Counted from the first letter of the stretch, positions 10,472 to 64,000 are shown. The stretch is 64,000 nt of DNA from Thermoplasmata archaeon (GCA_049300255.1 JBAQJJ010000049.1:43920-107919), one strand, 5' to 3'. The notes: a model not told the origin generated them from the letters alone. A program made the numbers and translations.

Positions 10472-13400
10472 TCACGGCGGTGGAGGAGGAGTTCCCGGAA
10501 ATACCTCGGGCGGGGGTGATGGTCCCACAGGGCGAGGGGGCTCTTTGCGACGTAGCCGAAGTAGGGTCGCCACGATTCCGATGGCTACTACTGCAACGAT
10601 CGCGCCGAGTAGCGCATAGCCCTGGGCCAGAGGCAGACCGAGGAACTTTTGCGAGCCGGTCCCACCTGTGGAGGAGGAACTGAAGGTGATCGATTGGGAG
10701 GCAGCCTTTCCGTTCACAGTGATGGCACCGGCTCCCGGAGTTGCCAGGTACCCGGCAACGGCCCCCACGCTAAACGAGTAGGTGCCATTGGGCTCCATGT
10801 ACGTGATCAGCGAGACAATCGAACTGTTTGTTGTCATATTCAGTGTCAAACCCCAGGTCGTTCCGGAGGGCAGCCCCACCTCCAGGAAACTTACTGAGAA
10901 GACTGCCGAGAACCGAATGGTCTCGGCCAGGGCTTCCCCTGCCACCACGAAGCCCCCTCTCGCTAGAGTGGGCGCGTAGTGCGTGTTCGGCGACGCGGCC
11001 GAGTAAGAATAAGTCCCATTCTCCAGTGAGATGGCGGCGGTCGCGGAGGTTGAGGAAATGGAGGGCTCTCCGGAGACGTTCAGGTACCAATCCGCCCCCA
11101 GGGGAAGTCCGGTTTCAGTGAAGGTCACGGGATATGTCGCAAGTGTTGGGCTCGTGGTAAATGTAATCGGTTGAGAGATCGTCTTTCCGGTGACCGTCAC
11201 ATTTCCTGAATCCGGAATTGCCGAATATTCCGCCTCATGCCCAATATTGAACGGATAGGTGCCGTTTGGTTCCAAGAAAGATATCGAGGAGTTCGTCGAA
11301 CCTTCATTAGTCTGGTTCAACACCACCGACCATAATGATCCGGCAGGGAGTCCCGTCTCCGTGAAGGTCACATTGAACGCGGCGATTGAAGTCCTCTGCG
11401 AAATAATTGAGACCGTCCCCTGGAAAAAGTTCCCGACGTACATCTTTCCATTGGCCACATCATACGCGAAGGTATCCGGCTCGCCACCTACCGCAAGCGT
11501 GGCGATCACGGTGTTCGCCGTATCGTTGATGACGCTCAGATCGTTCGGAACTTCGTTTGCGACGAAGACCTGCCCCTCTCTGCCGTCGTAGCCCACTGCG
11601 TCCGAGCCGTTTCCTACTGAGACGCTCGTAAGCACTGTGTTCGTCCGGTCGCTAATGACGCTCAGATTACTCGAGCCCTCGTTCGCTACGAAGAGCTCCC
11701 CCTTCCCGCTATCGTACGCGATACCGTCGGGAAAGCTTCCTACCGCGACGGTGGCGATCACAGCGTTCGTGGTCGCGCTGATGACAGTCACGTTGCTCGA
11801 CTCGTCGTTCGCGACGAACGCCTCCGCCTTTTCGCTATCATAGGCGAGCGCAATGGGAGAATTGGTAGAGATAGTATCGACGACCGTCCTCATCGTATCG
11901 TTGATGACGCTCACATTGTTGGAATCGAAGTTCGCGACGAAGATCTCCCCCTTTTCACTATCATAGACGGCCGCTTCGGGACCACTCCCTACTGATACGT
12001 TGGCCACCACAAGGTTGGTCTCATCGTTAATCACACTCACGCTGTTCGAATAGAAATTCGCCACGAAGAGCTCCCCCTTCCCGCTATCGTACGCGATACC
12101 GTCGGGGGCGCTTCCGACCGCGACGGTCGCTACCTCGTTGTTCGTCGTATCATTAATGACGCTCACATTGTCCGATTCGTCGTTGGCGACAAATACCTCC
12201 CCCTTCCCGCTATCGTACGCAACAGCCCTGGGGCTCGCGCCCACCGCAACGGTCGCCACGACGGCGTTCGAGTCTGAGATTACGCTCAGCGAGTCCGAGA
12301 AATCATTTGCGACGAAGACCTCCCCCTTCGCATTATCATCCGCCATCCCGGTGGGATCGTTTCCCACATCGATGGGTGCCCCGACGACGTCCCCGACATC
12401 CGAGATCACGGTCACATTATTTGAGTTTGAATTGGCGACGAAAATCTCTCCCGCGTCCGCGTCAAAGGCGACGCCAGACGGGGTTTCCCCCACACCAACC
12501 GTCGCGACGACTGAGAAGGTCTCGTCGGAAATCAGACTGAGGTTATTCGTCCCTGAATCCGTAACGGCGACCTCGTTCTCTGCACTGACGTAGGCAACGG
12601 TCGAAGGGGAAGCTTGGACTTCGACGGTTTTTAGAATAGAGTCCGATAGACCTCCCAGTACGCTCACGTTGGCCGATCCCAGGTTCGCCACGAATAACTC
12701 CCCTTCCCCACTGTCATACGCGATGCCGTCGGGACCGTATCCGACCGAGACGAGAGCCACCTCGGAGTTATTCGAATCCGAAATCACCTCCACTTTGTTT
12801 GAGGCTGTTAGGGTCACGAAGATCGTGCCTTGTTCCGGGTCGTACGCGATTCCGCCCGAAGGGTTCCCAGCAGGAGAGCCAGCCAAGGAGATCGTCCTCA
12901 CTACAGTGTTCATCGTGTCGTTGATGACGGTCACGTTGTTTGATGCCCAATTGAAGACGAAGACCTCTCCCATCCCACCGTCGTAAGCGATACCGTAGGG
13001 CAAGTTTCCGACCGGGACGGTAGCGACCAGAGCGTTCGTCGAGTCGTTGATCACACTGACGCTGTTCGAGTATTCGTCCGCCGCAAAAATCTCCCCCTTC
13101 CCGCTGTCGTACGTGGCTGCCACAGGGCGCAGGCCATTACCCGATCGGAAGTTTCCTGGAACGAGCGTGTGGTTGAGCAATACCAGCGTCTCGGCCACAT
13201 AAGGTATCGACGCAGCCGGAATCTCTTGAGAGGGACTGATCGCATGTCGACCTGTCGGAGAGAGCCCAGACTGTGGAAGATGGGTCGAGGTCATGAGTCC
13301 TCCGCTCTCTTCCGATTGGTTCTCAAACGTAGAAGAAGTGCCGGCGGAAGAAGGCTGCGAGCGCGTAGCGGCATGAAGGAACCCTCCCAGGCTCACTCCG

Positions 13401-13483
13401 CCCATAACAAAAAGACAAGAAAATGCAATCGCGGCGAGGGACCAACCGCCGCCTCTTTTCAGATGAAATCTGAGGTTTTCCAT
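10472..13483 (-). CDS. Large surface protein built of YVTN-family beta-propeller repeats, with signal peptide, C-terminal TM anchor and Pro-rich tail (S-layer-like)
   Basis: 1003 aa. Repeating about 40-aa units (e.g. ...GIAYDSGKGELFVAN.. SNNVSVIND..), dozens of N-x-S/T sequons, N-terminal hydrophobic segment, C-terminal hydrophobic helix followed by RRKEPPRPVGPSPPPEVFPGTPPPPP. Confidence 0.85.
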   Translation of the reverse strand: MENLRFHLKRGGGWSLAAIAFSCLFVMGGVSLGGFLHAATRSQPSSAGTSSTFENQSEESGGLMTSTHLPQSGLSPTGRHAISPSQEIPAASIPYVAETLVLLNHTLVPGNFRSGNGLRPVAATYDSGKGEIFAADEYSNSVSVINDSTNALVATVPVGNLPYGIAYDGGMGEVFVFNWASNNVTVINDTMNTVVRTISLAGSPAGNPSGGIAYDPEQGTIFVTLTASNKVEVISDSNNSEVALVSVGYGPDGIAYDSGEGELFVANLGSANVSVLGGLSDSILKTVEVQASPSTVAYVSAENEVAVTDSGTNNLSLISDETFSVVATVGVGETPSGVAFDADAGEIFVANSNSNNVTVISDVGDVVGAPIDVGNDPTGMADDNAKGEVFVANDFSDSLSVISDSNAVVATVAVGASPRAVAYDSGKGEVFVANDESDNVSVINDTTNNEVATVAVGSAPDGIAYDSGKGELFVANFYSNSVSVINDETNLVVANVSVGSGPEAAVYDSEKGEIFVANFDSNNVSVINDTMRTVVDTISTNSPIALAYDSEKAEAFVANDESSNVTVISATTNAVIATVAVGSFPDGIAYDSGKGELFVANEGSSNLSVISDRTNTVLTSVSVGNGSDAVGYDGREGQVFVANEVPNDLSVINDTANTVIATLAVGGEPDTFAYDVANGKMYVGNFFQGTVSIISQRTSIAAFNVTFTETGLPAGSLWSVVLNQTNEGSTNSSISFLEPNGTYPFNIGHEAEYSAIPDSGNVTVTGKTISQPITFTTSPTLATYPVTFTETGLPLGADWYLNVSGEPSISSTSATAAISLENGTYSYSAASPNTHYAPTLARGGFVVAGEALAETIRFSAVFSVSFLEVGLPSGTTWGLTLNMTTNSSIVSLITYMEPNGTYSFSVGAVAGYLATPGAGAITVNGKAASQSITFSSSSTGGTGSQKFLGLPLAQGYALLGAIVAVVAIGIVATLLRLRRKEPPRPVGPSPPPEVFPGTPPPPP

Positions 13484-15537: not shown

Positions 15538-16091
15538 CGTCCGCCGAGGAGGTCGAACGGGTCCTCACGTCGGACCCGTCCCCCGACCAACGGATCCTAA
15601 ATTTCGCCGGGCTCCTCCAACGCGACAGCGGAAGCGAGGTCATCATCGTCGGGGGCTCGGCGATCGAGGTCCATAGCCGCGGAAAGTACCATTCCGACGA
15701 CCTCGACCTCCGAGGAGATCGGGAGGCCATCCGTCGCGTCCTCGCCCGCTGGGGGTTCCGAAACGCGGGTAAGATTTGGTTACGAGAGGACTGGAAGATC
15801 GCCGTCGACGTCGTCGGAACGAAATATACGGGCGATCCGTACCGGGCGGTCCGGGTCGAAACGAAATTCGGTCCCGTCCGCGTCGCCGTCGTCGAGGACC
15901 TAATCATTAAACGCCTTGCCGAAGCGAAGCATTGGAAAACGAAAAAGGCGATCCAGGAGGCCGCGGTCCTCTGGGCGGACTATCGGGACCGGATCGACTT
16001 CGAGTACCTTAACCGGCAGGCGCGGGAGTACGACGTCGTCGACCTCCTCGCCGATTTCCGCGAGCGGCTCGACGGGACCGTAAGCGACTAG
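15534..16091 (+). CDS. Minimal nucleotidyltransferase-fold protein (AbiEii/DUF1814-like or MNT-like), putative toxin
   Basis: Motif IIVGGSAIEVHSRGKYHSDDLDL matches the GS-x(9-13)-D-x-D nucleotidyltransferase signature. 185 aa, translationally coupled to the upstream wHTH gene. Confidence 0.5.
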   Translation: MTSAEEVERVLTSDPSPDQRILNFAGLLQRDSGSEVIIVGGSAIEVHSRGKYHSDDLDLRGDREAIRRVLARWGFRNAGKIWLREDWKIAVDVVGTKYTGDPYRAVRVETKFGPVRVAVVEDLIIKRLAEAKHWKTKKAIQEAAVLWADYRDRIDFEYLNRQAREYDVVDLLADFRERLDGTVSD

Positions 16092-16239
16092 CGTTCCCGT
16101 CGCCGCTGTCCCTTTACGACCTCGACCTTGCCTCGGCAGAATTCCACGACCTGTTCGATCCTCGTTTTACCCCGCTTTTCGTCACTATGAATGACCCGCT
16201 AGCGTTACAGTTCCCTTCTGGCCGAACGATTAAATATGG

Positions 16240-16284
16240 CTGACAGGACTCTTATGCGGCTGCTGACAACTGTCTGACAAACAG
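16240..16284 (+). promoter_or_regulatory. Triple CTGACA(A) repeat with an inverted-repeat arm (CTGT...ACAG) upstream of smc, preceded by an AT-rich TTAAATAT (16230-16237)
   Basis: Read directly: gCTGACAggactcttatgcggctGCTGACAActgtCTGACAAacag; about 55-100 nt upstream of the smc ATG. Confidence 0.3.
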
Positions 16285-16339
16285 CCTAGATCAGCGTGCG
16301 GGATCGAGAAACTACCCCTCCAGCGAGGATAATCTCTCC

Positions 16340-19300
16340 ATGTATCTCAAGCGGATCAAGGTTCGAAATTTCAAGTCATTCGCGGGTGCGACCGAACTGC
16401 CCTTTCAGCCGGGCTTTACGGGCGTCGCCGGCCCAAATGGGATGGGAAAATCCAACATCTCGGATTCGATCCTGTTCGTCCTCGGGCCGACCAGTTCGAA
16501 GGCACTGCGTGCCGATCGCTTGACTCACCTCTTCTTCAATGGGGGAGCCGCGAAGAAGCCGGCGACGGAATGTGAGGTGTCGTTGGTCTTCGACAATCAG
16601 GACCAGCTCCTTCCGGTCAATGCCGCCGAAGTGGAAATCACCCGATACGTGAAGCTCGCCCCGAGTGACCCAAATGGCTACTACTCCTACTTCTACGTGA
16701 ACGGAAAAAGGACCACCCAGACTGAGATTGACGCGATTCTGTCCCACGCCCGATTGTCGGGGGATGGCTACAATCTCGTCCAGCAAGGCGACGTCAACAA
16801 GGTCGTCAGTATGGGCCCCATTCCTCGACGGGGTCTGGTGGAACGGCTTGCCGGAATCAGCCAATACGACGAAGAACTCGAGCGGGCCGAAACCAAACGC
16901 ACGGACCTTGACACTAACTTGGACCGGATCAATACCCTGCTCACCGAGATACGAAATCGGATCTCGGCCCTCGAGTCCCAACGACTCCAAGCGATCCAGT
17001 ACCGGCAGATCCAAGAGGAAAAGCGCCGGGCCGAGGCCCAACTGGCCCGCGCTGGCCACGTACTCGCGCGCCAAGAGGTGACGACGTGCGAGACGCAGCT
17101 CGCCCAGCTCACCGCCGAGATCGAGAAGCTCAAGGCCGAAGCTGGGAAGCTGACCGAGGAGCGCGATTCCGCTGCGGAGGCGATTGACGCGGCCGAGAAG
17201 GAGATCGCTCGACAAGGCGGGGAATCCGCGGCGAAATTCAAGCTCGAGTTAGACGACAAGCGGCTGGCCTTTGCCAAGCTCGATCAGAATCTTCAGAGCC
17301 TCCAAGAGACCCTTCACGGACTGGACGATCGAATTCACGTTCTTTCGGAACAGGTCAAGGCCGACGAGAAGGACGCTCACAAATTCGAAGCTCAGGAAAG
17401 GACGCTCGCGAGCCAGCTCGAAGAGTTGGCACAGCAAGCGGAATCCCAGGCGCGCGACCTCAAGCGAGCAACAGGGGACGCGGAGCAGTCCCAAGGAAAG
17501 TTGGTCGGGACGCGGAAGCAAGTGCTCGAGCTCGAACGACAATACGAGCTCAAGCAGAAGGCCTGGCAAGAGATCGTCCAACGGCGTGAGAGCGCGAAGG
17601 CGTCGCTCGACGCAGCCGATCGAAGCCAAGCCCAGGCCGAGGAGGATCATCGCGACCGCGAGCTCGAACTCAAGGATCTCGAACTCAGGATCAAGCAGTC
17701 GGGGGCGGGGCCCAAGGGCGTCCAAGTTCGCACCGCTGACCTCCAGAAGGAGCTCCAGCAACTGAAGACGCAGGAGAAGGAACTGACGGCGAGCACGGAC
17801 CGCCTCGCCCAAGAGGTGGCCGAGCTCAATCGTCGGTACCTCGCGCTCGATGCACGGCTGAAAGCCCGCGCGGAGAGCGGAAGCCGGGCGACGCCGATGG
17901 CCGCAGTCGATTTCTTGCTTTCGCAACGGAACCTGGGCAAACTCCCCGGCATCCGCGGGACCGTCGAGGAGTTGGCCCAGTTCGACGCGAAATTTCAGAC
18001 CGCGCTCAATGTTGCCGGTGGAAGTCGTTTCCAAGCGTTGGTCGTGGAAACCGACCAAGTCGCGGAGGAGTGCATCAAACTGCTCAAGGCCGAGAAGCGG
18101 GGACGCGCGACGTTCCTCCCGCTCAACAAGATGTTACCGGGTCGCCCTCATGGAAAGGCACTCATCGCATCGCAGACTGCCGGCACCCAAGGTTTCGCCT
18201 TGGATTGCGTCCACTTTGACGAATCTCTACGCCCCGCCTTCTGGTACGTGTTTGGCGAGACGGTCATCATGGACGATCTCGGCCACGCGCGTGCGCAGAT
18301 GGGCGGAGTTCGTCTCGTCACCCTGGGAGGCGACCTGATAGAAGCCACAGGCGCCATTTCGGGAGGCTATCTCGAGACGGGCGAGAAGGGCCGGGGCGGC
18401 GATACTGGCGTCGAACTCAAACGGCTAGGCGAAGAGTTGCGAACCAAAAGCGCGGCGGAAAGCACCGCTCGCCAGTCTCTCCAAAAGGCTCTCGAACGCA
18501 TCCGGGGACTGGGTGAAGAACTCACCAAACGCTCGGTCGAAGACGAGGCGCATCGATCGACTCGGGATCTCCTGGACGGCGACCTCACTTCCGCTCGGGA
18601 TCGACTGACGGAAGCGAAGGATCGGGTCGACTCGGTCTTGGCGGCCCGCATCAAGGCCGAAACTGCCTATCAGAAAGCTAACGTCGAGGCGGACTCCTCG
18701 GCCAATGAGCTCACCCGATTGAAAGAGCAACTATCGAAGATCCACGAGGAGTACCTGGGCCATCTTCCGGGTGCTCTCTCGGCTCGCCTGCGAGAATTGC
18801 AAGAGGCAAGCCAGACCACCGCGGACGCCCGCGTCAAGCTCAATGGAGAATTGGAGTCGGTGCGGGCGTCGCTCGCGGCGTTGCTGCAGAATCTCACGAC
18901 CCACCGTAGTGAAGTAGGCGAGGCCAAGCAACAGTCTGCCGAAAAGCGAAAGGAGCTCCAGGCCGTCACCAAAGGGCGCGACGGGGCGAAGGAAGCGCTG
19001 GAAGCACTCAAGACAGTCGAGTCCCAGCAATCCGAGACGGTCAAGGCCGCGACGGAGAAGAAGCGCAAGCTGGACGCGGAGCGCCTCAAGATCGTCGAAA
19101 AGCTGGCGCGGGCTGAGACGCAGATCAGCGGACGACAGACGATGCTCGACCAGGAGCAAATCCGCCTCGCTACCGCGCAACAACGTCTCGCCGAAGTTGA
19201 AGCGGCCCTCAAGGAGTTCCCGGAGCCGGCGGCGGACGAGAAACCGATCGCCGTCGACGAGCTCAAACGCACGATCACCACCCTCGGCGCCCAACTCGAC

Positions 19301-19969
19301 TCGATGGGATCCGTCAACCAGCGCGCGCTCGAAGAATACGATCAGGAGAAGCGACGGCTCGACGAATTCCAGTCCGAGGCGGAGCGTCTCTCGTCCGAGA
19401 AGAAGGAACTGCTGGGCCTCGTGGGCGAGATCGAGAAGAAGAAACGCGAGAAGATCGGACAAGTCGTGGTCGCGGTCAACGTAGCCTTCAAGGAAATCTA
19501 CGGGGAGCTCTCGGGAGGCGGCATCGGAGAAATCGCCCTCGAATCACCGCAGGATCCCTTGGCCGGCGGGCTGCTGATCCGAGCCAGTCCGGTCGGGAAG
19601 ACCGTCGAACGGCTCGAACAGTTGAGTGGCGGCGAGAAGTCGCTCGCCAGCTTGGCATTCATCTTCTCGCTCCAGCGATACGACCCAAGTCCGCTCTATG
19701 TGTTCGACGAGGTGGATATGTCGCTCGATGGCCTCAATGCGGAGAACGTCGGCCGCATGTTGCGGCGCAATTCCGAACGCGCCCAATTCATCGTGATCTC
19801 GCTCCGGAAGGTGACCCTGAAGTTCGCCCATCGACTCTTCGGCGTTACGATGCACGGAGATGGATGCTCACGGGTCGTCGGACTCAACCTCGACGAGATC
19901 GTCGACATCGACGAACGAGACCGGCTGACCCCCACCGCCGCGGCTCCAACTCCCTTGGAGGCCCGATGA
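16340..19969 (+). CDS. smc: Chromosome segregation protein SMC
   Basis: 1209 aa. N-terminal Walker A (GPNGMGKSNI), long coiled coils, hinge, C-terminal signature LSGGEKSLASLAFIFSL and Walker B LYVFDEVD. Confidence 0.95.
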   Translation: MYLKRIKVRNFKSFAGATELPFQPGFTGVAGPNGMGKSNISDSILFVLGPTSSKALRADRLTHLFFNGGAAKKPATECEVSLVFDNQDQLLPVNAAEVEITRYVKLAPSDPNGYYSYFYVNGKRTTQTEIDAILSHARLSGDGYNLVQQGDVNKVVSMGPIPRRGLVERLAGISQYDEELERAETKRTDLDTNLDRINTLLTEIRNRISALESQRLQAIQYRQIQEEKRRAEAQLARAGHVLARQEVTTCETQLAQLTAEIEKLKAEAGKLTEERDSAAEAIDAAEKEIARQGGESAAKFKLELDDKRLAFAKLDQNLQSLQETLHGLDDRIHVLSEQVKADEKDAHKFEAQERTLASQLEELAQQAESQARDLKRATGDAEQSQGKLVGTRKQVLELERQYELKQKAWQEIVQRRESAKASLDAADRSQAQAEEDHRDRELELKDLELRIKQSGAGPKGVQVRTADLQKELQQLKTQEKELTASTDRLAQEVAELNRRYLALDARLKARAESGSRATPMAAVDFLLSQRNLGKLPGIRGTVEELAQFDAKFQTALNVAGGSRFQALVVETDQVAEECIKLLKAEKRGRATFLPLNKMLPGRPHGKALIASQTAGTQGFALDCVHFDESLRPAFWYVFGETVIMDDLGHARAQMGGVRLVTLGGDLIEATGAISGGYLETGEKGRGGDTGVELKRLGEELRTKSAAESTARQSLQKALERIRGLGEELTKRSVEDEAHRSTRDLLDGDLTSARDRLTEAKDRVDSVLAARIKAETAYQKANVEADSSANELTRLKEQLSKIHEEYLGHLPGALSARLRELQEASQTTADARVKLNGELESVRASLAALLQNLTTHRSEVGEAKQQSAEKRKELQAVTKGRDGAKEALEALKTVESQQSETVKAATEKKRKLDAERLKIVEKLARAETQISGRQTMLDQEQIRLATAQQRLAEVEAALKEFPEPAADEKPIAVDELKRTITTLGAQLDSMGSVNQRALEEYDQEKRRLDEFQSEAERLSSEKKELLGLVGEIEKKKREKIGQVVVAVNVAFKEIYGELSGGGIGEIALESPQDPLAGGLLIRASPVGKTVERLEQLSGGEKSLASLAFIFSLQRYDPSPLYVFDEVDMSLDGLNAENVGRMLRRNSERAQFIVISLRKVTLKFAHRLFGVTMHGDGCSRVVGLNLDEIVDIDERDRLTPTAAAPTPLEAR

Positions 19970-20928
19970 CTGCTCCCTCCGACGCGAGTGTAGATTCCGT
20001 CTTCCCGACCGCGCCCTCCGAGATCCCGCGCGAAGCGGCCGAAAAAATGCTCAACTATCTCGTATTCCACCGATCGCTCCTCGGGGAGACCGAAGATTCC
20101 ACGCAGTTACTCGAACGGTACCTGACGCTGGTCCGCGAGCTCAAGGACGGTGTGCACGTCGTGATCACCGACCCGTTCCAAAAGGCGACCGCCCTCCTCC
20201 TCGAACTCGTCATGGACGAGGAGTTCGACCCGTGGGAGATCGACCTGGTCAAGTTCACCGACGCCTACTTGGAACGCGTGCGTGCGGACGGGAGCGTTAA
20301 TTTCGCGGTCGCGGGTCGGCTGCTCTACATGGCGTGGAGCATCCTCTATCTTCAGTCCGAAGAACTTCTCAAAACTCGCGAGCCGCCCGCTGAACCGACG
20401 GGAGACGACGGGCTTCCCCCCGAAGGGCTGGACGATGGTTACCTCGGGATGATGGATACTCCGGAGGCGGTGGATGTCACCTCGTCGGTCCTCGGGTCCG
20501 TGGACCCTCCGGCCCTCGTGGGAATGGTGCGCCATTCCGAAACTCGGCCCGTCAGCCTGCTCGAACTCGTTCGCGCCTTTGGCGAGGCCGAACAGGACGC
20601 CCGCCGGGCGGTTCGGGTACAGGAACTACGGGACCGGCTCCGCGAGGAGCAACGGGCGCCACCCGAGGTTCTCGTGCACGGCGATATCCCGGCCGAGGAT
20701 CTCGCCGATGCGTGGGAGATCGCCCGACGCCGCCCGTCTGGGTCCCCGTTCGCGCTGCTCGACCTGTGGACCCCGCTGCAAGGGCGAGATCGTTTGGTTT
20801 CACTCTTCCTCGCCGTCCTCTTCCTCGCGCGAGAAGGCGCGATTGAACTGGACCAGGCGAAGGTCGGAGCGGGCCCCATATTGATCGTTCGGATCCGCGA
20901 GGATCGCGTTCCCGTCACGGAGGGGTGA
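19966..20928 (+). CDS. scpA: Segregation and condensation protein A (ScpA kleisin)
   Basis: ATG overlaps the smc stop (ATGA at 19966-19969). Product about 320 aa; smc-scpA-scpB gene order. Confidence 0.8.
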   Translation: MTAPSDASVDSVFPTAPSEIPREAAEKMLNYLVFHRSLLGETEDSTQLLERYLTLVRELKDGVHVVITDPFQKATALLLELVMDEEFDPWEIDLVKFTDAYLERVRADGSVNFAVAGRLLYMAWSILYLQSEELLKTREPPAEPTGDDGLPPEGLDDGYLGMMDTPEAVDVTSSVLGSVDPPALVGMVRHSETRPVSLLELVRAFGEAEQDARRAVRVQELRDRLREEQRAPPEVLVHGDIPAEDLADAWEIARRRPSGSPFALLDLWTPLQGRDRLVSLFLAVLFLAREGAIELDQAKVGAGPILIVRIREDRVPVTEG

Positions 20929-20934
20929 TCGCCC

Positions 20935-21561
20935 ATGCCATCCAAGGTCGATGAATTGGTCCTACGGATCGAAGCGGTGCTGTTCGCCAGCGGGAAACCC
21001 ATGTCGGTCAAGGAACTGACGGACGCGCTCGAGCTCACGGATTTTCGACCGGTCCAACACGCGCTCAAGACCCTTCTCCACACGTACGAGAACCGTCAGA
21101 CGGCGATCGAGGTCCGCCGCGTCGGCGACCGGTACGCTTTGCAACTGAAGGAGGCGTTCGTCGCCTCCGCGCATGCCGTTACCCCGGTCGACCTCGGCCC
21201 GCGCACGATCAAGGCGCTCACCCTGATCGCCTACCACCAACCGATCCTCCAGAGCCGGCTCGCCCGGATGATGGGAGACGTCGCCTACGAAGAGGTCCAG
21301 CGCTTGAAGACGGCGGAGCTGATCCGCGCCGAGCCGAAGGGCGCAACCTTCGAACTCACGACCACGCGCCAATTCGCGGAGTACTTCGGTATCGCCTCGA
21401 CAAGGCCGGAAGAGATCCGTAAGTTCCTCGAGCAGAAGCTCGGGGTCCAGCCGACGACGCTCCCGCCGGCCCTCCCTGCAGAAGAAGTCCTCCCCTCAGC
21501 GCCGGACGCGCCCGCAGTGGACGAAGCCCCGCCGGAAGACCCCCTCGCCCCCACGCCGTGA
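20935..21561 (+). CDS. scpB: Segregation and condensation protein B (ScpB)
   Basis: 208 aa, tandem winged-helix organisation, directly downstream of scpA. Confidence 0.85.
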   Translation: MPSKVDELVLRIEAVLFASGKPMSVKELTDALELTDFRPVQHALKTLLHTYENRQTAIEVRRVGDRYALQLKEAFVASAHAVTPVDLGPRTIKALTLIAYHQPILQSRLARMMGDVAYEEVQRLKTAELIRAEPKGATFELTTTRQFAEYFGIASTRPEEIRKFLEQKLGVQPTTLPPALPAEEVLPSAPDAPAVDEAPPEDPLAPTP

Positions 21562-21565
21562 TCCG

Positions 21566-23887
21566 TTAGAGTTGCCCACAATAGGGGCAGCGGACCGGTT
21601 CGGCAGGACGGGGGGCGCCGCAATAGGGACACGCCATCGTCCCCGGAGAACCCGTCGCCGCTCCTGCGAGCGGGGGCGGTGGGGGTGGCGGCATTTCGTA
21701 CGAGGGAGAAGGCCATCCATAGCTTCCCGGGGGTGGGATGATCGGACCGGTGGGCTGCTTGGTCCGTCCGAAGACTATGATCAATACGACCGCGACGGCC
21801 AGGGCTACTCCGATGATGACAATCAGGAACGAGACCGGGATGGGGCTAGTGGCGCTGTTCGATGGAGGCAGCAATGGCACGGGGCCAGAATACGTGTAGT
21901 TCCGAATCGCGGGGTTCGCGTCCGCCGCCAGGAACGCCGATGGATCGATCGACCCCCAGCCCGTGGTCGCGTCCCACCCGGGTCCGGCGGAAAACACGTA
22001 GTTGGATCCTTGCGTGATGTCCTCGAACGGATTGGCGGCTCCCGGATTCTGGGCATAGTAACTCGCGATCCGATAGAGCTCGGGGTCGATGTACCCGAAG
22101 AGATGATGGGAGCTGCCCGCGAGGACGGCTAGGATCCCGGCAAATACCGGAGCCGCGACGCTCGTGCCTCCGAGCAACGTGAAGTAGGTCCCCGAGGCAT
22201 TTCGCTCGACATAGGCAATCGTCGAATTCGCGACAAACGCCACATCCGGCTCGGCCCGACCGATCGACCCGGCGCCCTGCAGGATCGTAGCATTGACGAT
22301 CGCCGGCTGGGCCGCTGAATGCATCTGCCACGAAGGCTCGGGGTAGACGGCGCTGATGCCTCCCTCGCTCCCGCCGACCACGCCAAACGAGGTCTGATAC
22401 CAGGTCGCCTGGGAGAAGATCGTTCCGGCCCGCGCGTCAAAACTCGCATTGAGGTCCGTTCCGTTCCAGGTTCCTGCCGGTTCGCCTTGCAGTTCGATCT
22501 CGGTGCCGCCGACGGCGACATCGCCGAAGGATTCGAACGCCGCCGAGGCGGGCCATACAGGCCACTGTCCATCCTCACCCCCGGTGAGAGAATTGGGGGC
22601 ATTGCCCGCATCTCCGCTCGACGCGACCACGGTCGTTCCGATCGCCGCCGCATGCATCAGCTCGGCATCCCACATCGAATCGTTTAGGTCAGGGAGGCCA
22701 AAGGAGCCACTGACGACCGCCAATTGGGCCGCTCCATAGTTGTAGGAGAGAGCCGAGGCGAGGCCCTGCGCCAGATCGTCCGCGAGGTCCGAATAGGTCG
22801 GACTACCTACGAACACGCTACCCGGAATGTAGAAATTGTAGAGAGATGCCCCCGGCGCGAGACTGCCCGCCATTTCCAGATCGAGTGAGTTCTCGAGCTC
22901 GTCCGAAGTGTCGTCGCTCCAGTTCCCAAAGTAGCCCGGAGCAGGCGCAGTCGCGTAACCAGGGATCGCCACCGGAACACCCGTATACTGGGGGACGGGC
23001 CACCACGACGGAAGCGTGTCGTTGAAGTATTCTTGGAGGACGGTTGGATCCCACGGCGGCAGGTTCGCCCCGATCGTCACATTGTAAGCCGATGCCAGAA
23101 GAGTCGCGATCGCTTCGCCGGCCCCGAAGGAGGCATTCGGACTCGAAGAGTTGCTCGGAAACAGGTTGCTGACGCCGTACGCCTGCGTGAAATCGGATCC
23201 GAGGTACCATTGGTCACCCGTCGAGGGATCGACGACGAATGAGTTGGACGTGGTCGCGACCCGTCCCTCGCTCTGGGAGACGAGCGTAGCAGCCGTTGCC
23301 GATGCGACATTCGAAAGGTCGCTGAATCCTCCCGCGCCCATCACTTGACCCTCGAGCGAAGTGGGCAATGTCGGGGGCGACGTCGCGCTGTAGACCCAGT
23401 TTCCGGTTGGCGTACGGTACTGAACGAGCGTTGTGTGGAAGGCAGAATCAATCGTTTGCACCGCTAGTGTCGCGGTGACTCCCATCCTATCCGGAGTGGC
23501 CTGGATTCCGCGCCCCCCCAATTGCACGAGCGTGGACTCGACTGAGGCGACGGTTCCGGCCGTCGGGGCGAATCGTTGCTCGAACTCCGACTCGGTCAAG
23601 AAGTGTCGATACTCGATTGCCGACGGATCGGAAAGCTGAGTGAGTAGCGCATTCAGCCCCTCCAGATCGTGAGGGGCGAGCGTGAGGGTGATGTCGACGC
23701 TAGCGGCCGGCGGGAGCGGCTGAATCGCAACGCCGCGGGGGAGTGGGGTAGCATCGGTCGCGAAGCCTGGCGTGCTCGCGCGCGGGGCGACGGCGACGGC
23801 CGCGGCCGGGAGTGCCAATCCCGAAGCGGGAACCGCGAGCAGAAGAATGACGGTCAGGAAAACGAGTGCGAGCGTCGATCCGCGCAT
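21566..23887 (-). CDS. Sedolisin-like (S53) serine-carboxyl peptidase with pro-kumamolisin-type N-terminal propeptide, C-terminal TM anchor, Pro-rich linker and terminal C4 zinc ribbon
   Basis: Signal peptide; catalytic-Ser context LLGGTSVAAPVFAGILAV and SGDAG (S53-like); many N-x-S/T sequons. The C-terminus reads ...IPVSFLIVIIGVALAVAVVLIIVFGRTKQ.. PPPPPPP .. CPYCGAPRPAEPVRCPYCGQL. Confidence 0.75.
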   Translation of the reverse strand: MRGSTLALVFLTVILLLAVPASGLALPAAAVAVAPRASTPGFATDATPLPRGVAIQPLPPAASVDITLTLAPHDLEGLNALLTQLSDPSAIEYRHFLTESEFEQRFAPTAGTVASVESTLVQLGGRGIQATPDRMGVTATLAVQTIDSAFHTTLVQYRTPTGNWVYSATSPPTLPTSLEGQVMGAGGFSDLSNVASATAATLVSQSEGRVATTSNSFVVDPSTGDQWYLGSDFTQAYGVSNLFPSNSSSPNASFGAGEAIATLLASAYNVTIGANLPPWDPTVLQEYFNDTLPSWWPVPQYTGVPVAIPGYATAPAPGYFGNWSDDTSDELENSLDLEMAGSLAPGASLYNFYIPGSVFVGSPTYSDLADDLAQGLASALSYNYGAAQLAVVSGSFGLPDLNDSMWDAELMHAAAIGTTVVASSGDAGNAPNSLTGGEDGQWPVWPASAAFESFGDVAVGGTEIELQGEPAGTWNGTDLNASFDARAGTIFSQATWYQTSFGVVGGSEGGISAVYPEPSWQMHSAAQPAIVNATILQGAGSIGRAEPDVAFVANSTIAYVERNASGTYFTLLGGTSVAAPVFAGILAVLAGSSHHLFGYIDPELYRIASYYAQNPGAANPFEDITQGSNYVFSAGPGWDATTGWGSIDPSAFLAADANPAIRNYTYSGPVPLLPPSNSATSPIPVSFLIVIIGVALAVAVVLIIVFGRTKQPTGPIIPPPGSYGWPSPSYEMPPPPPPPLAGAATGSPGTMACPYCGAPRPAEPVRCPYCGQL

Positions 23888-23988
23888 TATCAGAACGTAC
23901 TAGATGCGCACGGCAGATAACCGTGGGGGATTCCCGAGACCTTGCTCGACCTCGCCAACTCTTTATCTCGGACGTCCGTGCCCGGCGT

Positions 23989-24411
23989 ATGAGCCCGCCG
24001 GAATCGCCGTCCGAGCGGTGCATCTTCTGCGAGATCGTTGCTGGGCGATCCCCAGCGTATGTCGTGTATGAGGACCCGCACACGATTGCGTTTCTCGATC
24101 TCTTCCCCTTCACGCGTGGCCATCTGCTCGTCGTACCGAAACGCCATGTGCCCCGACTCACGGACCTGCGGAACGACGAGCATGCGGACTTCCTGCGCGC
24201 GCTCACCGCGGTTTGCCAGCGGGTCGAACGATTGTCGAGCGACTACAACGTCGCCATGAATCAAGGGGCCCGGGCGGGTCAGGTCGTTTTCCATCTTCAC
24301 TTCCACATCATCCCCCGTTACGGCGAGGCCAATCCCTTCGGACGACAGCCGCGGATTCGACTCGGCGAACCGGAGGCCCGCGAGCTAACGACCCAATTAT
24401 CTGCCCCGTGA
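23989..24411 (+). CDS. HIT-family (histidine triad) nucleotide hydrolase/transferase
   Basis: CIFCEIVAG... and the histidine triad HLHFHIIPR. I chose the internal Met as start. Confidence 0.85.
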   Translation: MSPPESPSERCIFCEIVAGRSPAYVVYEDPHTIAFLDLFPFTRGHLLVVPKRHVPRLTDLRNDEHADFLRALTAVCQRVERLSSDYNVAMNQGARAGQVVFHLHFHIIPRYGEANPFGRQPRIRLGEPEARELTTQLSAP

Positions 24412-47326: not shown

Positions 47327-48139
47327 ATGGGGGAAGCTTCCAGTTCGGCGGCCACGACTGCTCCGAATCCAGCCACCCTGAGGGGCGGTCTGATCTTTTG
47401 CGAGAACTGTGGGAAAGAAACGCTCCATCGAATCGTCAAGGTCACCGATCCTCGATCGCGCCGCGTCGAAGGGTTGGCGCGGTGCAACGATTGTCGATGG
47501 ACTCATCCATTCTCTATCCAACGCGCGGAACTGCGGACGATTCGCCAGATCGTTTCACACGGGAAAGTATCAGAGGCAGCGTCCGTTCGCTTGCCGATCA
47601 CCGAACGGCTCGCGGTTGGTCACCGAGTTCCAGAATCCGCTCCCGCAATGCGGATTCTCCGCATCGATACCCGCACGGGGCACCGGGTCTCATCCGAAAC
47701 GGTTGGCCACATCAGTGCGATCTGGGTCACCCCCGACGAAGGGAGCGCCGTGCCCGTCTCGATCGTTGAAGGGAGGCGCACACGCCCAGCCCGCATCGTT
47801 CTGCCAGCCCAGACGCTCCTCACGGTCGGGGAGGAGATTCGCGTGGAAGGAGATCGCCTCTTCATCGCCGCGCTTCGCGCGCGCGGACGGACGTGGCGAC
47901 GCGAGGACGACGGCTTTGAAGCGCGTGAGGTGCAGCGAATCTACGCGCGACGAACGTCGATCCCACCTGCGGGCAACAGCGACTGGAGTCGCGGACGGGA
48001 GATGCCGAGGTCGCGGGCCAGCGCCACTTCGCGCTCATCACGTTCCCGCTCGAGTCCCGGCGTCAGCAGGAACCGGATTTTGCCCCGCGCGCGCACCGCC
48101 GGGGGCGGGGCCACCGTCCACAACGACTCCCCCTTGTAG
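47327..48139 (+). CDS. N-terminal C4 zinc-ribbon protein (HVO_0476-like family?), C-terminal extent uncertain
   Basis: CENCGK...CNDCRW zinc ribbon followed by a conserved-looking about 170-aa domain. The last about 65 aa are Arg/Ser low-complexity and overlap the convergent NFACT gene. Confidence 0.4.
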   Translation: MGEASSSAATTAPNPATLRGGLIFCENCGKETLHRIVKVTDPRSRRVEGLARCNDCRWTHPFSIQRAELRTIRQIVSHGKVSEAASVRLPITERLAVGHRVPESAPAMRILRIDTRTGHRVSSETVGHISAIWVTPDEGSAVPVSIVEGRRTRPARIVLPAQTLLTVGEEIRVEGDRLFIAALRARGRTWRREDDGFEAREVQRIYARRTSIPPAGNSDWSRGREMPRSRASATSRSSRSRSSPGVSRNRILPRARTAGGGATVHNDSPL

Positions 48140-61939: not shown

Positions 61940-62100
61940 AGAATCCTCGCGTCGGCCGCACCAGCCCCCCCTATTTATGACTACTGCCGAAGAACGCCAC
62001 TCGATTCCATCGACTTCGTTCCGGAGACATGGCTTTACGGGCAAGCCCATACCCTCCCACCGAAGGGAATGAGGGTCCCAAGACCGATCGGACCAGAGCG

Positions 62101-63864
62101 ATGAGTCGCACGACCTTCCTCTGGCTCTTTTCGCTCGCGTTCTTCCTGGTCTTTCTCGCGTTGCAACCGCTGTTTAGTTTCGCGCTCTTCGGCTCCGACA
62201 CCGGAGAATACTATCGGCTCACCGCGGTGTTGTTGACGACTGGCCACTTGCCCCACGGGGGGGCGTACCTGGGGTGGGGAGCGGCGTATCCCGACTTCCC
62301 GGGGATCTTCCTACTTTCCGGCGCCGCCGCCGGCGCTTACGGGACGGACGCACTGACCGCGCTGATCGTCGTCGTACCTGTGGTCGCCGTTCTCTCGGTT
62401 TTCCCTCTGTTCCTTCTCTTTCGGCGGCTCTTCCCGCAGGATACGATCGCCCTGCTCGCGGCGGCCATTTCGAGCCTCGCGATGCCGCGGCTCTTCTCGA
62501 TCGCCCACCCAGCCCCTTTGTCCATCGGAGACTTTCTCGTGGTGGCCGCGCTCTGGATGCTCGTCGAGGGCCGTCGTGATCTTCGTTGGTACGTGCCTCT
62601 CTCGTTGACCAGCGCGGCGCTTATCGTAACCCATCATCTTTCCAGTTACTTCTTCGTGGTGAGCGCCCTGGGTGGGATTCTCTTACTCGAGCTTTGGAAA
62701 CCCGGACTATGGAGCCGGCGGTATCCAACTCGTGAATTGGTGTTCATGGCCGCATTTCTGACGGGCCTGTTCGTGTTTTGGTTCTACGGCACAACGACGT
62801 TCGTAGCGAAAGTCATTTTAGCCGGCGTCCTGATCCACGTGAGCACCGGCGTTATTTTTGCCAGCTTCGAGGCCGCCGGTCTGGTCGCGGTCGCCTTCGT
62901 CGGGGGTTTGATCGCGCTCCGCCGTCGCTTCGCGAGAAGCGCGCGACCGTGGGTGCGCCTTCCGACGGATCGGAGCGTGATGCGCGACGCGATACTCATC
63001 GCGGCCGCTGTGTTCGGCGGTGTGGTGGTTGTGGTCTTCGTCCCTATTCCCGGAACGTCTCAGACGACCACCCTCGCGGCGATTCTGTTTTTCGCGCCGA
63101 TCCTCGCTCTGTCGATCTTCGGAGCGGGCAGTCGACGCGCGCTGACCCCGAGTCGGATGGCCCCCTTCTCGGTCACCTGGCTCGGCGCGCTCGGATTATC
63201 CGCCTTAGGCTGGCTCATCTTCTCAAGCTATCTTGCGAACGCCAATGTTAGTCAGATCGTGCCGGCGGCGCGGCACGTCGAGTACCTGTTCCTTCCTCTC
63301 GGGCTGCTATTCGCAGTCGGGATCGGCCGTTTGGTCGCTCGCGCGGGCGATCGGTACGGTCGTCGCGCCATCGTGGTGAGCTCGGTCGCCGTCGTGTTGC
63401 TTCTGGGCGCGAACGCGGCAATCGTCTATCCGCCGCAGAACGATTTTGGAGGATTTCAAGAAGGCCTCACGGTACAGGACGCCGCCCTCTGGATGTGGGT
63501 CGGAATCGACGTCTCCTCCCACGCCGTCGTGGCTTCGGACCACCGATTGAGCTCGATGATTTTCGGTTTCGACGGGAATCCCGCTACTTGGGATTCTACT
63601 CCCGCCCTTTTCACCGGATCCAATTGGTCGGCGGCGGCCTCCGAGCTAAGAGGCTCTCCGGCGCCCTCGCTGGTTCAACCCGTTTCGTACGTCGCCGTGG
63701 ACGCGGTGATGTATGCCGGCGTCGCCTTGAACCCGACCGGCGCGGCACCACCGCTGAGTGCAGCAGCCATCGCGTGGTTCATGGCAGCCCCGTTTGTCCT
63801 CGTCTACGAAAATGGCCAGCAGGCGATCTATCTGGTCGACGCGAATTACTTGCCGCCGACGTAA
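62101..63864 (+). CDS. Polytopic membrane protein, GT-C-fold glycosyltransferase-like (PMT/ArnT/DUF2079-like)
   Basis: About 590 aa with 12 or more TM helices and a C-terminal soluble domain; no AglB WWDYG motif seen. Confidence 0.5.
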   Translation: MSRTTFLWLFSLAFFLVFLALQPLFSFALFGSDTGEYYRLTAVLLTTGHLPHGGAYLGWGAAYPDFPGIFLLSGAAAGAYGTDALTALIVVVPVVAVLSVFPLFLLFRRLFPQDTIALLAAAISSLAMPRLFSIAHPAPLSIGDFLVVAALWMLVEGRRDLRWYVPLSLTSAALIVTHHLSSYFFVVSALGGILLLELWKPGLWSRRYPTRELVFMAAFLTGLFVFWFYGTTTFVAKVILAGVLIHVSTGVIFASFEAAGLVAVAFVGGLIALRRRFARSARPWVRLPTDRSVMRDAILIAAAVFGGVVVVVFVPIPGTSQTTTLAAILFFAPILALSIFGAGSRRALTPSRMAPFSVTWLGALGLSALGWLIFSSYLANANVSQIVPAARHVEYLFLPLGLLFAVGIGRLVARAGDRYGRRAIVVSSVAVVLLLGANAAIVYPPQNDFGGFQEGLTVQDAALWMWVGIDVSSHAVVASDHRLSSMIFGFDGNPATWDSTPALFTGSNWSAAASELRGSPAPSLVQPVSYVAVDAVMYAGVALNPTGAAPPLSAAAIAWFMAAPFVLVYENGQQAIYLVDANYLPPT

Positions 63865-64000
63865 GGATGCAACGTTCCATCGATCTCCCACGTTACGATG
63901 GGCGCAGTGGATCGCTCGGCCAATACACCAATTAGCCGGCGGGCCCACTCGAGTTTCGCCCGTTTACGATCGGCGGACGCGGCGTCGCTCTCCTCAACGC

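Follow-up and report, generated by a model that had tools for sequence, protein, structure and literature searches.

A membrane-tethered sedolisin of Thermoplasmata with a predicted intracellular C-terminal zinc ribbon

We analyzed a 64,000-nucleotide stretch of DNA from a Thermoplasmata archaeon (GCA_049300255.1 JBAQJJ010000049.1:43920-107919; hereafter referred to as the window, with positions counted from its first letter), focusing on an open reading frame (ORF) at 21566..23887 on the minus strand. The gene starts with ATG, ends with a stop codon at 21566-21568, and encodes a 773-residue protein that is predicted to be a membrane-anchored pro-sedolisin with a small four-cysteine (Cys4) zinc ribbon at its C-terminus. 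Comparison of the family members showed, as judged from their sequences, that purifying selection weighs more heavily on this ribbon than on the enzyme. The best explanation of the whole, which we favor with moderate confidence, is that the protein is a surface acid peptidase whose ribbon docks a cytoplasmic partner. The S53 peptidase family is already known, as are cytoplasmic zinc ribbons beside transmembrane (TM) helices, which are common yet functionally obscure. What is new is the combination of a membrane-tethered S53 enzyme with a family-specific ribbon that is its slowest-evolving part, in a core gene retained throughout an archaeal lineage of order level; our literature search found no paper on this combination.

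All parts of the gene lie on the minus strand. The N-terminal hydrophobic segment, a putative signal peptide (residues 1–35, MRGSTLALVFLTVILLLAVPASG...; 23783..23887), was identified by hydropathy and is followed by a pro-kumamolisin activation domain (pro-domain; residues 55–187; 23327..23725; Pfam PF09286, E 2e-21, 77.2 bits against a cutoff of 23.5). The S53 catalytic domain (residues ~226–660; 21908..23212) was recognized by phmmer against PDB sequences and by an alignment of 120 sequences (the query and 119 homologues). A Pro/Ser/Thr-rich stalk, predicted to be extracellular, occupies residues 661–684 (21836..21907) and leads to a single TM helix (residues 685–707; 21767..21835; Kyte-Doolittle peak 3.5), after which come the residues GRTK. 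The remainder consists of a Pro/Gly-rich linker, predicted to be cytoplasmic and disordered (residues 708–749; 21641..21766), with a PPPPPPP run at residues 732–738, and the putative Cys4 ribbon (residues 750–773, TMACPYCGAPRPAEPVRCPYCGQL; 21569..21640), located by its motif and by sub-threshold Pfam ribbon matches. The tail ends in ...EMPPPPPPPLAGAATGSPGTMACPYCGAPRPAEPVRCPYCGQL, followed by the stop codon. In the hydropathy profile, the segment around residues 685–707 was the sole strong membrane segment besides residues 1–35; a third, weaker peak corresponds to the buried active-site helix GGTSVAAPVFAGILAVLAG. A weak Pfam match to Peptidase_S8 was also seen at residues 378–589. Thus, the ORF, hydropathy, Pfam and motif analyses bore out the order of parts given in the preliminary description of this gene: signal peptide, pro-domain, S53 domain with GGTSVAAP, single TM helix, Pro-rich linker and terminal ribbon. 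The spacing it gave for the ribbon, CPYCG-x13-CPYCGQL, has to be corrected. The ribbon reads C753-P-Y-C756-G ... C767-P-Y-C770-G-Q-L773, with nine residues (APRPAEPVR) between the two knuckles, and 13 is the number of residues between the first and the third Cys. The CxxC...CxxC motif maps to 21578-21631.

An AlphaFold2 (AF2) model of the 773-residue protein, built on the alignment of the query and 119 homologues, had a mean predicted local distance difference test score (pLDDT) of 84.3 and a predicted template modeling score of 0.81. At the N-terminus, the model has a helix at residues 2–17 and disorder at residues 20–39, and the pLDDT is lower in the stalk between the catalytic domain and the TM helix. 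The preliminary description had called for a model of the tail. AF2 predicted a helix at residues 685–706, a disordered linker at residues 709–747 (pLDDT <50) and a confidently folded hairpin at residues 750–773 (pLDDT ~85), whose strands cover residues 750–752 and 759–761, also at pLDDT ~85. The sequence and the model agree on two CxxC knuckles on a β-hairpin, as in a zinc ribbon. Public records of the family carry PF09286 and PF00082 alone, under names such as 'protease pro-enzyme activation domain-containing protein', and mention neither the TM helix nor the ribbon.

To evaluate the conservation of the tail, we used the relatives found by a protein search. Of the 299 relatives found, the best 120 provided the figures given below for homologues. 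They are 711–917 residues long (most of them 755–813), share 45–86% identity with the query, and come nearly all from metagenome-assembled genomes (MAGs) of Thermoplasmata. The TM helix, the basic residues after it, the Pro/Gly-rich linker and the ribbon were present in 120 of the 120. The family consensus of the ribbon is TFLCPYCGaxRPAEPVRCPxCGaL, and the protein always stops exactly three residues past the last Cys. When one genome of each GTDB species was scanned, 164 species proved to have a relative, and 80 loci were fetched. Among the 84 loci compared, 78 had the ribbon by a strict pattern. The six loci apparently without it comprised four with variant knuckles (CSRC, CGTC, CAQC and CGFC) and two cut by a contig end. 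The ribbon was thus present in all 82 orthologous loci having a complete 3′ end. The preliminary description had held that the tail might be a chance extension of the ORF if no other surface protein of related genomes had its motif; conservation across the order excludes such a chance extension.

The mean pairwise identity was 0.80 for the ribbon, the highest of any region, as compared with 0.61 for the catalytic domain, 0.44 for the pro-domain, 0.42 for the TM helix and 0.32 for the linker. The linker varied from 34 to 81 residues among the homologues (median 39) and was composed of 29% Pro and 14% Gly. In the 120 sequences, C753, P754, C756, G757, R760, C767 and C770 were invariant, and residues R760, P761, E763, P764, V765 and R766 of the exposed loop, none of them a metal ligand, were each at least 90% conserved. 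We then compared the three codon positions of the ribbon. The summed nucleotide entropies were 11.0, 10.0 and 29.6 at positions 1, 2 and 3, respectively. The third positions are thus about three times as variable as the others, indicating that selection acts on the peptide and not on the DNA or RNA. On this sequence evidence, the constraint is due neither to an overlapping RNA element nor to the abutting 3′ end of scpB. One 466-residue fragment of the family (P0141) has a frame that runs ~77 residues beyond the ribbon (...CPQCGAYQEGNGG...), and frameshift-like stretches in its catalytic domain; the extension is probably a sequencing or assembly error rather than a longer isoform.

We next assessed on which side of the membrane the ribbon lies. 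The N-terminal segment, one further TM helix and a positive-inside bias are the features of a type I single-pass protein. Over the eight positions that follow the TM helix, basic residues outnumber acidic ones in the homologues, with means of 2.5 and 0.17, respectively. The sedolisin contains 12 N-X-S/T sequons, as against 4.4 expected from its composition, and all 12 fall within residues 246–663, that is, in the ectodomain. Its homologues carry 10–21 sequons, whereas 0–3 are found in cytoplasmic neighbors; the adjacent SMC, ScpA, ScpB, LeuRS and dCTP deaminase (DCD) proteins have 0–2 each. The four Cys of the ribbon are the sole Cys of the protein. Outside the last 30 residues, 45 of the 120 homologues have no Cys and the others one to three. 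The single Lys of the whole protein follows the TM helix, at the cytoplasmic face. Because of the N-terminal signal with one TM helix, the basic flank and the distribution of sequons, Cys and Lys, the ribbon is almost certainly cytoplasmic, on a flexible tether as modeled. The cytoplasmic placement had been proposed in the preliminary description, and each sequence-based indicator (basic residues, sequons and Cys) agrees with it. The overall architecture, a type I single-pass protein with the ectodomain outside and the C-terminal tail inside, is very probably as predicted.

The ectodomain has the hallmarks of sedolisins. A phmmer search against all PDB sequences matched 15 entries, which were kumamolisin, kumamolisin-As, TPP1 and sedolisin (best 1gt9, E 7e-18); none of the matches reaches past query residue 661. 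The catalytic E332 (22892-22894) and D336 (22880-22882), the oxyanion D426 (22610-22612) and the nucleophile S576 (22160-22162), the last in GGTSVAAP at residues 573–580, align with kumamolisin E78, D82, D164 and S278, respectively, and all four were invariant in the 120-sequence alignment. In a Foldseek search of the PDB with the AF2 model, the top matches were pro-kumamolisin (1t1e, E 2e-29), to which the whole precursor was aligned, and the TPP1 precursor (3edy). The top 17 matches were all kumamolisin, TPP1 or sedolisin, with E-values from 2e-29 to 3e-18 and target-normalized TM-scores of 0.66–0.81. The protein therefore has the characters of MEROPS family S53: a pro-kumamolisin-type domain, a Ser-Glu-Asp triad with the oxyanion Asp, and a subtilisin-like fold. 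These results show an intact pro-sedolisin ectodomain at the level of sequence and model. By analogy with the characterized enzymes, we infer an S53 serine-carboxyl peptidase, predicted to be active at acid pH and to remove its pro-domain autocatalytically; the acid soil and peat habitat fits this.

We compared the protein with the characterized S53 enzymes (kumamolisin, sedolisin and TPP1). Both share the pro-kumamolisin domain, the subtilisin-like fold, the triad with the oxyanion Asp, the SGD and GTS motifs, and an origin in organisms of acid habitats. The characterized enzymes are soluble, secreted or lysosomal, and made as precursors of ~550 residues, whereas the protein studied here has ~90 additional residues inside the catalytic domain, as well as the stalk, the TM anchor, the Pro-rich cytoplasmic tether and the terminal ribbon. 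A similar layout is found among eukaryotic type I subtilases. In MBTPS1 (site-1 protease) and the furin-type convertases, a clan SB ectodomain that includes a pro-domain is anchored through one C-terminal TM helix, and the short tail in the cytoplasm serves trafficking or regulation; the S1P ectodomain (9csd) was among the distant Foldseek matches. They differ in belonging to family S8, in having a Ser-His-Asp triad and in having a tail without a zinc ribbon, and the Pfam MBTPS1_3rd match on the sedolisin was insignificant; the likeness is an analogy only.

To find relatives of the ribbon, we searched with profiles of it. A word-index search with a 42-column profile recovered only six short fragments and not the full-length family, and we therefore used an exhaustive hidden Markov model search of 1.84 billion representative proteins, which gave 290 matches; the best 150 of these, examined here, extend down to 39.5 bits. 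Within these 150, every match having a single C-terminal stretch with the RPAEP loop was a sedolisin of this family or a fragment of one, as determined by BLASTP against the query. The remaining matches were generic CPxCG ribbons, acidic and often in tandem, and the top scores came from multi-copy proteins of this kind that accumulate score. Family members themselves score 40–52 bits, near the 39.5-bit floor, so divergent copies of the ribbon on other ectodomains may have been missed. The spacing CxxCG-x9-CxxCG is the same as that of PF13240-scored ribbons in other proteins. Like the generic membrane-proximal ribbons, the sedolisin ribbon lies near a TM helix behind a low-complexity linker; it differs in being a single copy rather than an acidic tandem array and in its nearly invariant RPAEPVR loop. 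On the basis of sequence comparison, it fits best into a widespread class of membrane-proximal zinc ribbons, as a divergent representative specific to the family. We infer from the motif and the model that it binds a metal, zinc or iron, through its four invariant Cys.

The general design was encountered elsewhere. Three unrelated surface proteins of other organisms have several acidic CPxCG ribbons cytoplasmic to a single TM helix: P0193, with a PKD, Big_5 and CarboxypepD_reg ectodomain and three ribbons, P0196, with a PKD domain, and P0258, with an unassigned ectodomain, a TM helix and cytoplasmic ribbons. In the flanks of orthologous sedolisin loci, we also noticed small proteins composed of one or more TM segments, a poly-Pro stretch and a C-terminal CxxCG-x9-CxxCG (L025 20495-20896, minus strand, ending ...PPPPQVYNTPAPPPTTPTRVQICLKCGSVRQSPAAYCPHCGTVWPA; L017 18564-19163, minus; L031 12903-13652, plus; L008 6742-7188, plus; L036 11426-11869, minus; L075 18716-19639, minus). 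Their occurrence in several flanks indicates that the TM–poly-Pro–zinc ribbon arrangement is a recurrent design in these Thermoplasmata genomes. The search for further proteins of this layout that the preliminary description suggested thus gave a divided answer: the design recurs, and the RPAEPVR-type ribbon was found in sedolisins only, among the best 150 of the 290 matches. Within the window, the sole other CxxC-x(n)-CxxC in a long ORF is at 47399-47494 on the plus strand (CENCGKETLHRIVKVTDPRSRRVEGLARCNDC), near the N-terminus of the ~270-residue protein encoded by 47327-48139.

The gene occupies a fixed place in the genome. It is convergent with the ScpB gene (20935-21561, plus strand), the two stop codons being 4 nucleotides apart, and upstream of the latter lie the genes for ScpA and SMC (16340-19969). 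On the other side, a HIT-family gene (23866-24411) is divergent from the sedolisin gene and is followed by genes for a Memo-like protein, DCD and LeuRS. The order LeuRS-DCD-Memo-HIT / sedolisin / ScpB-ScpA-SMC was retained in essentially all the fetched loci with enough flank, including those whose sedolisins are merely 47–51% identical. Where the sedolisin is 45–50% identical, the neighboring proteins are 60–88% identical. This synteny across the lineage indicates that the sedolisin is a single-copy core gene and not a mobile or sporadic exo-enzyme. The orthologues come from Thermoplasmata MAGs, some of them from acid soils and peat, and the genomes that have one include the named Ca. Lutacidiplasmatales (TMEG) AcS1-36, AcS1-3, AcS13-54, AcS1-67, UBA184 and GcC5-34. 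In the Lutacidiplasmatales, S53 enzymes have been reported as the most prevalent extracellular peptidases, active at acid pH, along with peptide transporters and amino-acid catabolism (PMC9287336).

We propose the following scheme. A Sec-type signal peptide would export the pro-sedolisin, which would be glycosylated and would activate itself at low external pH, with removal of the pro-domain outside the cell. The catalytic domain would be held at the cell surface by the short stalk and the one TM helix, where it would digest extracellular protein for an acid-soil heterotroph while enzyme and products are kept at the cell. At the cytoplasmic end, a flexible Pro/Gly tether of ~40 residues would carry the 24-residue Cys4 ribbon with its exposed RPAEPVR loop, and the ribbon would dock a conserved cytoplasmic partner that controls the placement, clustering or turnover of the protease. 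From its family and habitat, we consider a nutritional role at the surface moderately probable. That the ribbon serves as a cytoplasmic protein-docking module is a suggestion we put at slightly under even; it is made because the exposed non-ligand loop and the C-terminal end hardly vary, a constraint that a ribbon of purely structural use would not call for.

Precedents for docking by small ribbons exist. The zinc-ribbon domain (ZnR) of Caulobacter ZitP binds PopZ; the ZnR of Myxococcus GltJ is a switch that binds MglB as well as the linker of GltJ itself (PMC11135422). They too are small cytoplasmic Cys4 ribbons with a flexible linker on a membrane protein, but they are bacterial and N-terminal, have a longer spacing (C5, C8, C28, C31) and belong to motility and polarity proteins, not to an exo-protease; we detected no sequence relationship between them and the sedolisin ribbon. 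In archaea, CdpC (HVO_0399, DUF7093), the FtsZ1 anchor of Haloferax volcanii, binds FtsZ1 through a C-terminal C4 ribbon carried on a long disordered linker (bioRxiv 10.64898/2026.07.16.738847). Its layout, in which the linker separates the membrane attachment from the ribbon, is that of the sedolisin; CdpC differs in being cytoplasmic, attached by an amphipathic helix and without an ectodomain. Fusions of heliorhodopsin with zinc ribbons in Thermoplasmatales have been proposed to recruit partners (bioRxiv 10.1101/2021.02.01.429150).

Several points weigh against this scheme. The precedents for docking are analogies, not homologues. The ribbon scores below the Pfam cutoffs, at 13.7 bits against 25 for Zn_Ribbon_1 (PF13240), 13.0 against 27 for Zn_ribbon_3 (PF13248) and 12.6 against 27.3 for DZR (PF12773), and its profile found no significant relative among PDB sequences. 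The matches there were at the level of knuckles and insignificant (C2H2 fingers, KCMF1, eS27, rubredoxin and RadA). The fold and the metal binding are thus read from the motif and the AF2 model. The nutritional role comes from family analogy, and a single-copy, syntenic, order-wide gene would equally fit a protease that processes surface proteins. No obvious partner candidate for the ribbon was seen among the genes of the conserved neighborhood, and the adjacency to ScpB is convergent and is broken by insertions in two loci (L014 and L039).

Other explanations of the tail were weighed against docking. That the ribbon is a chance extension of the ORF, a mis-annotation or an extracellular element could be suspected only because the motif is small and scores below the Pfam threshold. 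The tail of all 120 homologues and all 82 complete loci, the synonymous pattern of substitution, and the positive-inside rule with the distribution of sequons and Cys, which put the ribbon inside, leave this with hardly any probability. A second proposal came from the preliminary description, which compared the sedolisin with another product of the window, a 1003-residue YVTN/NHL β-propeller surface protein (10472-13483, minus strand; NHL/YNCE-type repeats and a signal-like N-terminus), and suggested an anchoring or sorting signal shared by the two. In its wider form, the TM helix with a Pro-rich tail, with or without a ribbon, would be recognized by an archaeosortase-like enzyme. The YVTN protein has, after the propeller, three β-rich repeats of ~100 residues (FTETGLP...NGTY...), 28 N-glycosylation sequons, and a C-terminal TM helix followed by RLRRK and a 27-residue Pro-rich tail without Cys. 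Both proteins of the window therefore end in a TM helix, basic residues and a Pro-rich tail, and to this extent the comparison held; the ribbon is absent from the YVTN protein. Among 120 homologues of its last 311 residues, 96 had a C-terminal TM helix. Their tails ranged from 3 to 67 residues, were Pro-rich in only 34 of the 96, and had a zinc ribbon in none. From these sequences, the YVTN protein ends in an ordinary stop-transfer anchor, its low-complexity tail being variable and not a conserved signal. Its C-terminal module has abundant homologues in Thermoplasmata, one of them a fragment labeled 'thermopsin precursor'. On the sedolisin, no PGF-CTERM or related NCBIfam model matched at E<=1; the matches seen were far below cutoff (mycosin, 17 against 279 bits; PEP_CTERM_LEVG, 11 against 100 bits, in the ectodomain). 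Sortase-type signals stop soon after the TM helix, whereas the sedolisin has a 66-residue tail there with a folded domain 40 residues on. Because the ribbon is specific to the sedolisin family (within the best 150 of the 290 matches), the YVTN tails lack it and no sorting-signal model matched, a shared signal is not supported, and we consider it very improbable.

The remaining alternatives accept a cytoplasmic ribbon and differ on its use. It may have no partner and be a small, fast-folding plug that fixes the C-in topology or stabilizes the anchor, for instance against extraction or slippage in SecYEG. The ribbon is minimal (24 residues) and always at the extreme C-terminus. In the same genomes, small membrane proteins that are unrelated to it also combine a TM helix with a Pro-rich linker and a generic ribbon, as do PKD/Big_5 surface proteins elsewhere; this recurrence suggests a general-purpose module. 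However, the four Cys and the Gly and Pro of the knuckles would suffice for a plug, yet the RPAEPVR loop and the flanking T-F-L are nearly invariant, and the loop holds while the catalytic domain drifts to 45–50% identity. The flexible tether of ~40 residues would be superfluous, and surface proteins of the YVTN type manage with a TM helix and RRRK alone. We regard the plug as rather unlikely. Regulated proteolysis, in which the ectodomain is shed and an intramembrane protease frees the linker and ribbon to bind nucleic acid or the transcription machinery and report extracellular protein, would make use of the conserved Arg residues and the archaeal CPxCG signature of the ribbon. Signaling commonly makes use of cytoplasmic zinc-binding modules on membrane-anchored proteins, as in the bacterial ZAS anti-sigma factors. 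Small CPxCG proteins, Brz among them, are regulators of transcription (PMC2253796). Against this, no site-2 protease, rhomboid or regulator is linked to the gene in the conserved neighborhood, the ribbon has very few residues and a net charge of about +2, and the Pfam and PDB searches gave no TFIIB/TFS-type ribbon similarity above noise; we give this reading little probability. Equally little goes to the notion that the ribbon contacts the cytoskeleton, the divisome or the segregation machinery (FtsZ-type proteins or SMC-ScpAB), so as to position the protease or couple the envelope to division; this would be a special case of docking. Signaling or cytoskeletal contact had been raised in the preliminary description and is plausible by analogy with other membrane proteins that bear a ZnR (PMC11135422; bioRxiv 10.64898/2026.07.16.738847). 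The layout matches that of CdpC, and the gene abuts ScpB-ScpA-SMC in nearly all loci, but the Pfam scan gave no DUF7093 match on the sedolisin even at E<=1, and the adjacency has no specific signal since the 20-kb block is wholly syntenic. The convergent orientation, together with a multi-TM ORF, transporter-like by sequence alone, between the sedolisin and scpB in L014 and L039, also speaks against it. On these grounds, we do not take the abutting genes as specific evidence of a link to SMC-ScpAB.

Docking of a cytoplasmic partner thus remains the reading we prefer, and it has consequences beyond this enzyme. An order-level lineage of uncultured acid-soil archaea keeps one membrane-tethered sedolisin in a fixed housekeeping locus, which suggests that these abundant soil archaea carry out extracellular proteolysis at the cell surface and not through released enzymes. 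As the ribbon evolves more slowly than the active-site domain, something inside the cell may be argued to recognize the tail. Membrane proteins of archaea and bacteria very often have small zinc ribbons beside their TM helices, and these ribbons are, to our knowledge, almost entirely uncharacterized. With its single ribbon, the sedolisin family is a clean case, and its candidate interface, the RPAEPVR loop and the fixed C-terminus, is sharply defined and could be used as bait for the partner. A stronger form of the idea, which we think unlikely, is that ribbon and protease form a transmembrane coupling, such that an intracellular partner (cytoskeletal, divisome, GTPase-type or regulatory) positions or gates the protease, or a released tail reports extracellular proteolysis. 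If true, this would be an undescribed outside-in or inside-out link in archaea and would give a defined function to the widespread membrane-proximal zinc ribbons.

Minor observations on the loci were as follows. In L001–L003, the sedolisin and scpB genes overlap by 4 nucleotides. The isolate SMAG_U12138 has the sedolisin-ScpB-ScpA-SMC block on two contigs (L031 and L042), which suggests a strain mixture or a contaminated bin. L058 is titled 'bacterium' despite its full Thermoplasmata synteny and is probably a mislabeled MAG. In the window, the AT skew is -0.28 at 62001-64000 and +0.18 at 16001-20000, over the SMC gene, probably reflecting strand-specific codon or amino-acid composition.

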